Shown here one piece after another: positions 1 through 5,531 of a stretch of 64,000 nucleotides of DNA. Position 1 is the first letter of the stretch. Each line of letters opens with the position of its first letter. The stretch lies in NCBI RefSeq assembly GCF_057098645.1, contig NZ_CM169472.1. One strand, given 5' to 3'. Position numbers and translations under genes: made by a program. The notes beneath the pieces were generated by a model, which worked only from the letters and a program-made list of their open reading frames with translations, was not told where the DNA came from and searched no databases.

Positions 1-168
1 CTCCAAATCAGCGTGTTAGTCCACTTTGGTGAAAGATGAGATTTATTTGTCGGCTGGCCTTGAGTTTAGCGGGGTATGTCAGTACTATAACGCGTCATTT
101 TTCAGCCGACCTTTAACACGTTCCTTGCCTCCCCGGGATTCGGCTGACCCAGACAGGAGGCTGAATAA

Positions 169-582
<414 letters not shown>

Positions 583-588
583 TTTCTG

Positions 589-1135
<547 letters not shown>

Positions 1136-1164
1136 TCGGTCACGGTCCATTAATACGACTTTGA

Positions 1165-1626
<462 letters not shown>

Positions 1627-1645
1627 TTCGTTATTCAACGAGACG

Positions 1646-1680
1646 TAAAAACGCCGACCACTGGTCGGCGTTTTGCTTTC
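1646..1680. terminator. bidirectional intrinsic terminator between convergent rplI and yjfZ
   Basis: GC stem cgccgacc/gtcggcg with 4-nt loop followed by T-run. Confidence 0.6.
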
Positions 1681-1696
1681 TATTTTTCGTCAGGTA

Positions 1697-2491
1697 TTAG
1701 TTTCGCAAGTAGATCCATTCACCATTCTCTTGTGTCCATAAGTCAGGATGGTTTGCTGGCGTTAGATACATACGAGCGCAACTGATGTCTCGCTCCTGCG
1801 GCACTCGCTCGAAACCCAAACCCGAGTAGATTGCGGCTGAACTTGATAAGGAACGCAGACCAATTTTCAAATCATGGGGTAAATCAGAATACGCGTTTAG
1901 CAATGCAGCAATGATGAATCCGAGGGCATTAGAAACGCCTGTAACAGTGCGAAGTTGGTCGATATAAAGATCGATTGTTGGTAGTTCAGATGACCAGCAA
2001 TTAGGCATTTGGGCAGGAAGGGTTACAACGTATCCTATCGTTTGGCCGGTATAGTCTGGAGTACCATAACCAGGTCCCAAAACCACTTCGTGTATTGTGT
2101 ATTTACTGTTGGGTTCGAAGGATTCGACATCTTGCAATAAATATTTCAGTTCTGCGGTTAACCTCGCACCCGCGTAAGCTTTATTGTATTTCTGGGCGTG
2201 AATATTATCTAATGTAGCTTCATGGTTCCATCCAAAAGAATTATCACCATTCATTGTTACTCCATCGTAAGCATTACACTTCTTTGCTAACTTATTGAAT
2301 GCTTGCCAGTCTGAGAGATCTAGTTTGTGGATCTCAACAGTACGTCTGCCATCGCAATTATGATCTCTTCCACGATTTGACAGTAATGTAGCGCGTGCGT
2401 ATTGATGAAATTTTAGTTTTGCTGGTTTGTCGGTGGACGAAAAACGAGGTAAATATGCGGGGAATGAATAAATAGTTGTTGGTAATGTCAT
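1697..2491 (-). CDS. yjfZ: uncharacterized protein YjfZ (DUF2686)
   Basis: 264-aa ORF, AT-rich, matches remembered YjfZ length and position after rplI. Confidence 0.82.
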   Translation of the reverse strand: MTLPTTIYSFPAYLPRFSSTDKPAKLKFHQYARATLLSNRGRDHNCDGRRTVEIHKLDLSDWQAFNKLAKKCNAYDGVTMNGDNSFGWNHEATLDNIHAQKYNKAYAGARLTAELKYLLQDVESFEPNSKYTIHEVVLGPGYGTPDYTGQTIGYVVTLPAQMPNCWSSELPTIDLYIDQLRTVTGVSNALGFIIAALLNAYSDLPHDLKIGLRSLSSSAAIYSGLGFERVPQERDISCARMYLTPANHPDLWTQENGEWIYLRN

Positions 2492-2838: not shown

Positions 2839-3057
2839 GTGCATAGTGAAAATCAAAGTAAAGGTGTGCATTATGCAAAATCACAGCGTCTCTTAGAAAT
2901 TACCCATGCGCACTTGCAGTTAATGGAATCCTTATTGGATGAAGGGAAGAAACACAATATTTTTAAGCCAGATATCGACCCATTTCAGGTGAATATTAAT
3001 ATTGCTGCGCTTGGGGGATATTATTTGATCAACCAGCATACGCTTGGCCTGGTTTAT
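2839..3057 (+). pseudogene. ytfA: ytfA 5' segment (TetR-like C-terminal-domain fragment) interrupted by IS200/IS605 element
   Basis: ORF starts with GTG at 2839; reading frame runs into IS left end; joining 2839..3057 to 4802..4909 restores an uninterrupted 108-codon ORF. Confidence 0.6.
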
Positions 3058-3114
3058 CCGGTGCGCCGTAAAACCCCGTCCTTCAGGGCGGGGATATACG
3101 GCGCGGTTTTCCAC

Positions 3115-3527
3115 CTAACCAGGTGTTTGCTGTTGTTCAATGTATTGACGGATGGCGGATATTGGCGCACCTCCGCAGCTACTGGCAAAATAGCCAGGAC
3201 TCCACAAAACGCCTTTGTAGTAATACCTGACTGCAATATCTGGTCGATCTCGTCGCAGTAACCTACCCGATACGCCTTTGAGGCTGTTTACCAGACTGGA
3301 TATCGCCAGTTTGGGAGGATAGTTAATTAACAAACGTGATCTGGTTCGCCATCCATTTCAACCAGTTCAGCTTCAAAATCAGCACATACCTTTGAAAAGT
3401 AAGTGCGTAGTTTTTCTGTCGCGTCATGGTCAAAAATCTGGCGTCGGTATCTGGTGACAAAGACCAGGTGAACATGCATCAGGAAAACACAATGCCTTCC
3501 ACGCCGGATATCGGTTTCTTTTTTCAC
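3115..3527 (-). pseudogene. tnpA: IS200/IS605 Y1 (HuH) transposase TnpA, frameshifted
   Basis: N-terminal frame (3327..3527) has HVHLVFVTRYRR and ends at EPDHV-stop; C-terminal frame (3115..3333) continues LINYPPKLAISS...LWSPGYF...IRQYIEQQ; frames offset by one nucleotide inside the HuH motif. Confidence 0.75.
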
Positions 3528-3549
3528 AGACCAAAATATAATTTGACCC

Positions 3550-4758
3550 GTGAAACGACTACAGGCATTTAAATTCCAGTTAAGACCCGGTGGTCAACAG
3601 GAGCGTGAAATGAGGCGCTTCGCAGGCGCATGTCGTTTCGTTTTCAATCGTGCTCTGGCGCTTCAGAATGAGAATCATGAGGCCGGTAATAAATACATCC
3701 CTTACGGGAAAATGGCTTCCTGGCTGGTTGAGTGGAAAAATGCCACTGAAACGCAATGGCTTAAAGATGCCCCGTCACAGCCATTGCAACAGTCACTGAA
3801 AGACCTTGAGCGGGCTTACAAAAACTTCTTCCGGAAGCGGGCTGCTTTTCCCCGATTCAAAAAGCGGGGACAGAATGATGCATTCCGCTACCCGCAGGGC
3901 GTTAAGCTCGATCAGGAAAACAGCCGTATTTTTCTGCCGAAACTTGGCTGGATGCGCTACCGGAATAGCCGTCAGGTCACGGGTGTTGTGAAAAATGTCA
4001 CTGTCAGCCAGTCCTGCGGTAAGTGGTACATCAGTATTCAGACTGAAAATGAAGTATCAACTCCGGTTCACCCTTCAGCATTAATGGTCGGACTGGATGC
4101 TGGCGTGGCTAAACTCGCCACGCTGTCAGATGGCACAGTCTTTGGGCCTGTAAACAGTTTTCAGAAAAACCAGAAGACGCTGGCGAGACTTCAGCGACAG
4201 TTAAGCCGCAAGGTCAAATTCAGCAACAACTGGCAGAAGCAGAAACGCAAAATACAGCGACTGCATTCCCGTATCGCAAATATCCGCAGGGACTACCTTC
4301 ATAAAGTCACAACGACCGTCAGCAAAAACCACGCAATGATAGTCATTGAGGATTTGAAGGTCAGCAACATGTCAAAGTCAGCAGCGGGTACGGTCAGCCA
4401 GCCGGGGCGCAATGTCCGGGCAAAATCAGGTTTAAACCGTTCGATACTGGATCAGGGCTGGTATGAAATGCGCCGCCAGCTTGAGTACAAGCAGCTCTGG
4501 CGTGGCGGTCAGGTGCTTGCTGTTCCGCCAGCGTACACAAGCCAGCGTTGCGCGTGCTGTGGTCATACAGCGAAAGAAAATCGCCTGTCACAAAGTAAAT
4601 TCAGATGCCAGGCATGTGGATATACAGCGAACGCTGATGTAAATGGCGCTCGTAACATTTTAGCGGCGGGGCACGCCGTTCTTGCCTGTGGAGAGATGGT
4701 GCAGTCAGGCCGCCCGTTGAAGCAGGAACCCACCGAAATGATTCAGGCGACAGCCTGA
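3550..4758 (+). CDS. tnpB: IS200/IS605 accessory protein TnpB (RuvC-like RNA-guided endonuclease)
   Basis: 402-aa ORF (GTG start); RuvC-I GLDAG (D183), RuvC-II IVIEDL (E267), zinc finger CACCGH...CQACG, Ruv[13 protein letters not shown] (D363) all present. Confidence 0.9.
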
Positions 4759-4817
4759 ACGTAGCAGGGATCCACGTCCTTCAGGGCGTGGAGGATGTCA
4801 ACACATCAGTATGGTTT
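4650..4817 (+). ncRNA. predicted TnpB omega-RNA (right-end element RNA): scaffold overlapping tnpB 3' end and RE hairpin, plus about 16-nt guide from the right flank
   Basis: Inference from family architecture: intact tnpB, RE hairpin 4772..4791, IS end at about 4801; guide would be 4802..4817 (cacatcagtatggttt). 5' boundary is a guess. Confidence 0.35.
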
Positions 4818-4909
4818 CACCCCAGGCACTGGAAGCCAGACGTAAGGTCATCAAAGAGACAATCCTTAGCTGGCTTTTGGTTGACCCGTCATCTACCGCG
4901 CACGAATAA
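4802..4909 (+). pseudogene. ytfA: ytfA 3' segment displaced by the IS insertion
   Basis: 35 codons then TAA at 4907..4909, in frame with 2839..3057 once the IS is removed. Confidence 0.45.
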
Positions 4910-5531
4910 AACTGCCATCCGGCTGGCGGGTGAACAGGACCTGTTGATTATTCCCCGTATCAATGGTTAAGCCCGTCACCACGCCGCTGGCGTTCTGGCG
5001 GATTTTCACCATCTGCCCGTTTTGCAAATTACTCAGCGGCTTACCCGCGCCTTCTACCTGCGCCATTGCATAGACATCGGTAGCGGGCAGTCCGTGGTCG
5101 CGGAACAGCTGCGCCATCGTTTTACCGGGTTCGACACGGTAAGAGCGCCATTGATTATCAATTCCGCTATCTGGCTGGAATGGTTGTGTTTGGGTAGTTT
5201 GCGGCTGCTCTTCTGGCTGGCCTTCCTGTATAGGTTCTGGAGCGACCGGAGCCACCTGATCAGGATCATTTTGTGGTGTGACTAATTGCGCCCGCAGCTG
5301 TTCTTCTGTCGGCGGTTGTGATTGTGACTGAATATCTAACTGCGCTTCACGCGTCACCACCGGCGCGTTGGGCGTATCATCAGATGGAAGCAGAAATCCG
5401 ACCACCAATACAATGGCGGCAATAATGATCCCCCGACGATGCATCGGCGGCAGCGGGTCCATGAAGCGAAAATTGTCCGGCGCGTGCCAGACTTTCTCCA
5501 GGGTTGGTTTTAGTTCAAAGCGCCCGGGCAT
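4893..5531 (-). CDS. ytfB: cell-division-associated OapA-domain protein YtfB
   Basis: ORF 4893..5567; start placed at the internal Met giving 212 aa; Pro/Gln-rich linker and C-terminal OapA/LysM-like region. Confidence 0.82.

Follow-up and report, generated by a model that had tools for sequence, protein, structure and literature searches.

The TnpB-omega-RNA system of ISDra2, reportedly described by Karvelis in 2021, is the closest characterised counterpart of the locus analysed here. Its architecture in Deinococcus radiodurans is known from cryo-electron microscopy (cryo-EM; 8H1J/8EXA; Nakagawa 2023, PMC10097598). Its RNA shares sequence with the 3´ end of tnpB and stops at the right-end boundary of the insertion sequence (IS), and the flanking DNA sequence provides the guide. 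Here we examine a stretch of 64,000 nt, called the window below, from an Escherichia coli chromosome (assembly GCF_057098645.1, contig NZ_CM169472.1), in which a copy of IS609, a member of the IS200/IS605 family, interrupts ytfA. Judged from the DNA sequence, positions 4662..4817 of the window have the same arrangement, and they are very probably the template of a canonical IS609 TnpB omega-RNA (reRNA). The boundaries of the element, its target-adjacent motif (TAM), the existence of its target, the conserved, strand-specific structure of RNA type and the integrity of TnpB are established by the observations that follow.

Several other described systems frame this comparison. Meers et al. (2023; bioRxiv 10.1101/2023.03.14.532601) presented a homing mechanism in which the motif at the right end of the element differs from the TAM at two positions and protects the donor. 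For IS609 itself, the SfaTnpB study (Nucleic Acids Research 2026, PMC12781874, Tables S1-S3) predicted omega-RNA scaffolds labelled 'IS609' and ISAba30 from metagenomic orthologs and synthesised them, and the IS609 ortholog was assigned the TAM TTAT (Table S2). HgcC and the sotRNAs are archaeal sense transcripts that overlap tnpB at its 3´ end (Gomes-Filho 2015, PMC4615843), and RAGATH-18 is the core of the IS607 TnpB guide RNAs (Ren 2024, PMC11061315). In the literature we found no experimental description of the native E. coli IS609 omega-RNA and no named E. coli small RNA at insQ/ydcM. The locus adds an ordinary case to a system that is already known, including its scaffold and TAM, both of which have been published; only the guide of each locus is site-specific.

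IS609 occupies positions 3058..4801 (1744 bp, + strand) inside ytfA, and its ends can be read from a comparison of insertion sites. E. coli CFT073, which lacks the insertion, reads ...GGTTTAT joined directly to CACATCAGTATGGTTT... at ytfA (in longer form, ...CCTGGTTTAT followed by CACATCAGTATGGTTTCACC...), a scarless empty site that shows the absence of target duplication. Four further IS609 insertions, located next to yedK, yeaR/yeaQ and ydcL/ydcO and on a plasmid, have left junctions that read ...TTAT and then CCGGTG (CCAGTG in the plasmid copy). At the right junction, all five independent insertions share ...GGAGGATGTCAA before they run into unrelated sequence, and the last IS609 base is A4801. 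BLAST matches of other IS609 copies cover positions 54/55..1802 of the query, and in an alignment of 53 relatives similarity is high through ...GGAGGATGTCAA and gone from the next base on, at the column that corresponds to 4801. A preliminary description of this stretch, whose coordinates all proved correct, had placed the right end of the element before 4802, and both the five insertions and the alignment bear this out. It had also proposed a TAM of 4-5 nt, tttat at 3053..3057. This motif does lie directly 5´ of the left end at 3058, but the constant core is only the 4-nt TTAT (3054..3057, + strand), which doubles as the left cleavage/target site of TnpA; at the five insertion sites this core is preceded by either T or C, and it is kept in the empty site.

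The predicted guide, CACAUCAGUAUGGUUU, lies at 4802..4817 (+ strand; the 20-nt version extends to 4821, ...CACC) and consists of the first bases of the 3´ fragment of ytfA, whose NCBI annotation begins at the base corresponding to 4802. Its length of 16 nt is taken over from ISDra2. The CFT073 empty site and the comparison of insertion sites agree with the position previously given for the guide, in that cacatcagtatggttt is the flank directly after the end of IS609. The flank, and with it the guide, differs at each of the five insertion sites and in all relatives. The rejoined empty site had been predicted to be the TnpB target sequence, and CFT073 indeed carries GGTTTAT followed by CACATCAGTATGGTTTCACC. 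When 5,426 complete E. coli genomes were searched with an 80-nt probe over the junction (>=80% coverage), the empty ytfA junction (TTTAT-CACATCAG...) was present in 3,216 of them (~59%), including MG1655, Nissle 1917 and CFT073. The occupied IS609-ytfA right junction has a match in 1,742, or about a third. The ytfA::IS609 allele, seen at window positions 3053..3057 and 4802..4841, is a common polymorphism in E. coli, and an exact native target, TTAT-CACATCAGTATGGTTTCACC, is now available for an endogenous E. coli TnpB.

At the right end of the insertion the guide match is preceded by TCAA, two mismatches from TTAT. The sole near-match to TAM plus guide in the window is this donor joint itself, with its two mismatches in the TAM. 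The same relationship holds for GstTnpB2 of Geobacillus stearothermophilus ISGst, which has the TAM TTTAT, a guide directed to the scarless donor joint formed after TnpA excision, and a right-end motif that differs from its TAM at two positions. GstTnpB2 belongs to another host and another element, and its function has been demonstrated by interference, chromatin immunoprecipitation sequencing and retention assays, whereas function at the window locus is predicted and TnpA there is not working.

Read in the sense of tnpB, the predicted omega-RNA scaffold has a conserved core of 140 nt (4662..4801, + strand), compared to 116 nt in ISDra2, as indicated by mapping onto ISDra2 and by tests of covariation, strand and synonymous sites. 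For the mapping, ISDra2 elements were indexed from the scaffold sequence (PMC12781874 Table S3) and from the cryo-EM description (PMC10097598). The elements appear in the same order in both RNAs. Stem 1 (4663-4668/4674-4679) closes a 5-nt loop, GGGCA, which can form a pseudoknot with the 3´ tail (4670-4672, G4670-C4672, with 4797-4799, G4797-C4799; the ISDra2 counterpart is -105..-103 with -5..-3). Stem 2 (4685-4689/4722-4726) is flanked, as in ISDra2, by G:A and U:G non-canonical pairs, and is followed by stem 3 (4697-4700/4709-4712), a covarying helix. An AUC linker then leads to stem 4 (4771-4779/4784-4792), the right-end hairpin, whose loop is UUCA (UUNA in the common pattern), and to the tail GGAUGUCAA (4790..4801 region), in which GAG and then GAUGUCA-A precede the guide. 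Written as motifs, the ISDra2 order CUCAUGGAG...GAAGUGAGAAUC-hairpin(UUUA)-GAGGUUCAA is matched in the window by CCUGUGGAG...GAAGCAGGAAC...GAUC-hairpin(UUCA)-GAGGAUGUCAA. The likeness extends to the protein, which is homologous (E ~5e-55) and has the same D-E-D triad.

The two systems differ in their TAMs (TTAT in the window, TTGAT in ISDra2), in the 5-nt loop of window stem 1, and in the pseudoknot, which reads GUC:G(A/G)(C/U) in the window and UUC:GAA in ISDra2; at its -5 pair both sides have changed, from U:A to G:C. The window RNA also has an extra stem-loop of ~36 nt (4733..4768) between stems 2 and 4 that ISDra2 lacks. The helix of this stem-loop, stem X (4733-4734/4767-4768 and 4738-4747/4754-4762, + strand), has no ISDra2 counterpart. 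Agreement is closer with the published IS609-ortholog scaffold, which is collinear with 4593..4801 and has the same terminal GGAGGAUGUCAA and the same TAM, TTAT. That ortholog is metagenomic and 94% identical to ISfinder IS609. Several stem positions of its scaffold are not the same as in the window; most of these differences are compensatory, those of stems 1 and 4 among them. The published ISAba30 scaffolds have core motifs in common with the window. The published IS609 scaffold carried an artificial guide, and the native ytfA guide is not described in the passages of PMC12781874 drawn on here.

The extra stem-loop has features of its own. It has no equivalent in the ISDra2, ISYmu1 or ISTel2 scaffolds, its internal loop (CCGAAG ... 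CGCCGUAGG) is highly conserved in the whole IS609/ISAba30 clade (loci L007-L086), and the tnpB stop codon (4756..4758) falls in the 3´ strand of stem X.

Conservation of these helices was assessed among 80 related loci whose TnpB proteins are 59-86% identical, taken from one-genome-per-species contigs of many genera, mostly Gamma- and Betaproteobacteria with some other phyla. Fifty-three compact, non-identical sequences (59-98% TnpB identity), including four more E. coli copies, were aligned with MAFFT, unfitted to structure, from the catalytic N-A-D codons to 20 nt beyond the right end. Across the 53 sequences, 94.6% of the base-pair cells are paired, versus 38.6-46.2% when partners are slid by 1-3 columns, and double-sided, compensatory changes occur in 26 of the 38 pairs. 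None of 500 shuffles matched any observed measure of pairing or covariation. The compensatory changes lie mostly in stems 1, 3, X and 4, which RNAalifold also predicts independently, and stem 2 is compensated in relatives L014, L017 and L026. Constraint on tnpB codons gives a concordant picture: between pairs of sequences, the same codon is used for the same amino acid at a rate of 0.69-0.72 in codons 371-402 and 0.46-0.57 in the rest of the gene, and the onset of this extra synonymous-site constraint (codon ~371) coincides with the start of stem 1.

The preliminary description had the scaffold start at 4650 and cover tnpB codons of about 365-402 plus the right-end hairpin. The overlap stands for the last ~32 codons, and the start moves to ~4662 (codon 371), where the conserved core begins. 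The hairpin was found exactly where predicted, at 4772..4791, as CCACGTCC-TTCA-GGGCGTGG. The suggested fold of the region was likewise favourable: 4650..4802 folds as a single sequence with z = -2.7 relative to shuffles, the minimum free energy (MFE) structure holds stems 1, 2, X and 4, and the stems and pseudoknot of ISDra2 type could be mapped onto it with one extra stem-loop (4733..4768). With an intact tnpB, strand-specific covariation and an exact transposon boundary, the locus appears to have the canonical IS200/IS605 omega-RNA geometry first proposed for it.

The protein partner is encoded by tnpB (insQ; 3550..4758, + strand), an intact open reading frame of 402 aa for an RNA-guided endonuclease. 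Its product scores 389 bits against NCBIfam NF040570 (guided_TnpB; cutoff 100), and its residues 3-376 match the ISDra2 TnpB structures 8H1J/8BF8/8EXA at E ~5e-55. RuvC residues D183, E267 and D363 align with the catalytic positions of ISDra2 and, together with C334/C337/C353/C356, show little or no variation when aligned with 29 homologs (45-62% identity). These homologs came from a 50%-representative protein search, a plain search having given only near-identical E. coli proteins. With the D-E-D triad and the four zinc-finger cysteines intact, the predicted protein shows no sign of being a dead nuclease. The adjoining tnpA (Y1/HUH transposase; 3115..3542, - strand) is a pseudogene, present as two pieces of open reading frame and annotated 'frameshifted' by NCBI. 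Strain 27_141091 carries an intact copy at this locus (L087) that is otherwise identical in the tnpA region and encodes an intact 143-aa TnpA matching NF033573; relative to it, the window copy has a 4-bp deletion between 3333 and 3334. The missing bases, ATGG, lie inside the HVH (HUH) motif, and their loss shifts the frame. Most E. coli IS609 copies inspected have a tnpA annotated as a pseudogene and an intact tnpB.

These facts bear on the possibility that the scaffold is a relic, part of a decaying IS609 copy whose tnpB and omega-RNA are no longer expressed or active and whose guide has no effect in this genome. The deletion in the catalytic motif of tnpA, and the pseudogene annotation of tnpA in most copies inspected, would fit such decay. 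The insertion also looks old and vertically inherited, given its presence in 1,742 genomes, and a simple scan of 3000..5000 predicted no sigma-70-like promoter on the + strand, such that expression must depend on the tnpB mRNA. Against this stand the full-length tnpB with all of its catalytic residues and the scaffold itself, in which every helix pair is valid in the window copy, unlike some other E. coli copies that have a mismatch in stem 4. Moreover, Gomes-Filho et al. (2015, PMC4615843) report, from RNA sequencing of E. coli K-12, transcripts that overlap tnpB at its 3´ end. On balance we consider it unlikely that the scaffold is a relic.

A different objection is that the structure is a feature of the DNA only, comprising the right-end hairpin, its guide and TCAA as read by TnpA on single-stranded top-strand DNA, with no functional RNA involved. 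Signals of the IS608 type are indeed present. In IS608, the left end has the cleavage site CL TTAC and the guide GL AAAG 5´ of the hairpin foot, and the site cleaved at the right end is TCAA, which is 10 nt 3´ of the foot of the hairpin (PMC3201880). At the right end of the window copy (4768..4801, + strand), the DNA guide GR, which is GGAT (4768..4771; GAAT in most relatives), lies 5´ of the foot of hairpin 4772..4791, and a 10-nt spacer ending in TCAA (4798..4801) follows, in an IS608-like geometry. The left end (3058..3093, + strand) reads as a 16-nt spacer ending in the DNA guide GL AAAA (3070..3073) and a hairpin, CCCCGTCC-TTCA-GGGCGGGG (3074..3093), that is nearly identical to the one at the right end. 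No second right-end motif was found in the window. The ends of IS609 obey the IS608 rules, with subterminal hairpins, 4-nt guides, TTAT/TCAA cleavage sites and no duplication, and the element is a canonical IS200/IS605 member with IS608-type ends.

Covariation in stem 4 by itself cannot separate these possibilities, as it fits an RNA hairpin or a TnpA-bound DNA hairpin equally. However, the covarying stems 1, 2, 3 and X reach ~110 nt upstream of the hairpin, into tnpB, and this upstream part cannot reflect that DNA hairpin; right-end substrates of 45-56 nt sufficed for robust IS608 TnpA complexes (PMC3201880). The type of pair tolerated also identifies the strand. There are 230 G·U cells and 23 A·C cells, a tenfold excess which indicates that the structure forms on the tnpB-sense strand, where wobble pairs are tolerated. 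Finally, taken one element at a time, the helices agree with the RNA that cryo-EM shows bound to ISDra2 TnpB. The DNA role of the hairpin is real and compatible with an RNA role, but it leaves 4662..4767 unexplained, and a structure that serves only as DNA is very improbable.

That TnpB and its RNA have instead been domesticated as an RNA-guided DNA-binding regulator of the TldR kind rather than a nuclease is extremely improbable: passages of PMC10705468 document domestication of this kind, and the guide does sit in a TetR-family gene adjoining ytfB, but TldR proteins are recognised by an inactivated or truncated RuvC, absent transposon ends and a fixed promoter guide, whereas here the RuvC triad is intact, the gene lies within a complete IS with both ends present, the guide is plain flank that varies over the five insertion sites, and the same scaffold has spread with mobile copies over many genera.

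If 4662..4817 does template an omega-RNA, its function can be outlined from the mechanisms of ISDra2, of the G. stearothermophilus elements and of TnpB processing its own mRNA (as passages of PMC10278001 describe), from which we infer the following course for IS609. Transcription in the tnpB sense would leave tnpB at its 3´ end, cross the right end of the element and enter ytfA. The structured 140-nt scaffold would be bound, and probably also processed, by TnpB, leaving a guide of ~16 nt derived from the flank (CACAUCAGUAUGGUUU). A site with TTAT plus a match to the guide would be recognised by the complex and cut by its RuvC domain; such a site is the scarless donor joint in ytfA left by TnpA excision, or an empty allele. 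Repair of the break from an IS-bearing sister copy would then retain or copy the element, a process known as homing, and the insertion itself would be spared, since the guide match at its right end follows TCAA in place of TTAT.

A number of points weigh against this interpretation. Transcription of the RNA and DNA cleavage by the TnpB of the window are predictions. No terminator was predicted after 4801 in the promoter/terminator scan, and with no predicted promoter either, neither end of the RNA can be placed from the sequence. With tnpA frameshifted in its HUH motif, the element has no TnpA of its own for excision and the window copy cannot make its own target, which would require TnpA from another copy, acting in trans, or the arrival of an empty ytfA allele. 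The pseudoknot between 4670-4672 and 4797-4799 is paired in 99.4% of cells, yet every change within it affects one partner alone (A/G with U, C/U with G). In addition, the GAUGU of the tail (4795-4799) is complementary to ACAUC in the guide (4803-4807), and the resulting 5-bp hairpin, which is paired in the MFE fold, could mask the guide seed and form at the expense of the pseudoknot, although this complementarity is probably a chance property of the ytfA insertion site. No Rfam family reaches its gathering score (HgcC, RF00062, 23.5 of 50 bits; sot0042, RF02656, 17.5 of 88; RAGATH-18, RF03064, 25.4 of 44.9), and RF03065 and RF02998, which are TnpB omega-RNA models according to Meers et al., give no match at E <= 10. 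Among related proteins, the TnpB of H. pylori IS608 had no activity in assays (Meers et al., bioRxiv 10.1101/2023.03.14.532601), and passages of the SfaTnpB study (PMC12781874) state that an IS609 ortholog was purified and tested before the work continued with SfaTnpB.

The polymorphism at ytfA suggests a further, quite improbable consequence. A resident TnpB, encoded by a live tnpB beside a dead tnpA, might cut empty ytfA alleles that arrive from other lineages by conjugation or transduction, or convert them by homing. If so, the locus would act as an allele-specific recombination barrier or gene drive, and the polymorphism would be maintained independently of transposition. The practical result is more modest: an omega-RNA gene should be added to the annotation, made up of the last, so far unannotated 140 nt of the insQ/tnpB region and the adjoining 16-20 nt of ytfA, and there is little import beyond this. 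As by-products, the analysis provides a covariation-supported secondary structure for the IS609/ISAba30 omega-RNA clade, with the extra stem included, and counts of occupied and empty ytfA alleles that describe a possible natural system for TnpB-mediated retention with a defective TnpA.

The covariance-model search that had been suggested gave Rfam matches that are below threshold but all fall at the expected place and strand: HgcC at 4695..4814, sot0042 at 4631..4792 and RAGATH-18 at 4685..4728, all on the + strand. HgcC and the sotRNAs have a right-end-like hairpin with a UUCA tetraloop followed by GAGGAnGUCA, which the window matches in part. Their scores are far under the thresholds, with good alignment limited to the 3´ hairpin and tail. 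The closing helix motif of RAGATH-18, CCUGUGGAG...GAUGAAGCAGGAA, matches window stem 2 and its flanks (4685..4728), but the internal part of the match is much shorter, and the IS607 RNAs of this type lie outside the open reading frame, in serine-recombinase elements with other TAMs. The window RNA is related to HgcC, sot0042 and RAGATH-18, yet lies outside these families by the Rfam criterion. Weak Rfam matches also occur at the left end (sot0042 at 2990..3094 and Hrs1 at 3066..3128, + strand). We rejected these as a second RNA, as their source is the left-end hairpin at 3074..3093, which nearly repeats the right-end one.

Other pairings in the scaffold region were considered and set aside. 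An alternative stem 2, formed by CCUG with a second GCAGG/GUAGG (4764-4768), does not account for the compensation in L014, L017 and L026, which in the alignment fits 4722-4726 only (pair 57/98). The stem 3 of the single-sequence MFE structure (4695-4702 with 4712-4718) is not kept in relatives, whereas 4697-4700/4709-4712 covaries. A long-range helix proposed by RNAalifold between 4631-4635 (ACGCC) and 4793-4798 (GGAUGU) is probably spurious: it has no double-sided change, involves the invariant N-A-D codons, and competes with the pseudoknot.

Positions 3000..4900 of the window are 100% identical to the E. coli O145 strain RM9872. The gene order in the NCBI annotation is rplI, yjfZ, a split TetR/AcrR gene (ytfA), a frameshifted IS200/IS605 tnpA and InsQ/TnpB, then ytfB and fklB. 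NCBI names the tnpB product 'RNA-guided endonuclease InsQ/TnpB family protein', and copies of the IS609 element in other strains are annotated 'IS200/IS605-like element IS609 family transposase'.

Some relatives depart from the common scaffold. At least 13, from different genera (L024, L032, L039, L041, L047, L048, L051, L060, L062, L065, L068, L070 and L074), have the right-end UUNA tetraloop replaced by an insert of 25-35 nt that contains one or two small GC-rich hairpins (e.g. CCGCC-GAAA-GGCGG), and the remaining scaffold is unchanged. These inserts fit the idea that the tetraloop is a mere linker between crRNA-like and tracrRNA-like halves. Eight other long variants have extra bases further upstream, around stem 3. 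At the right end, L018 has GCCAA with the loop GGGCA and keeps the pseudoknot as G-C, L016 has GGCAA and its pseudoknot is broken, and L021, from a Methylotenera metagenome-assembled genome, has lost the terminal TCAA (…GGAGGATGTGTGCG…). A lone IS609-like element sits on L011, a 2,057-bp contig labelled 'Streptomyces mutabilis' (NZ_BMTT01000064.1), and its protein is 82% identical to the E. coli one; this element may reflect enterobacterial contamination or recent transfer. Lastly, the 1,752-bp contig of Ca. Erwinia dacicola (L007) holds exactly one copy of the IS and breaks at ..GTCAA, as for an assembly-collapsed repeat.

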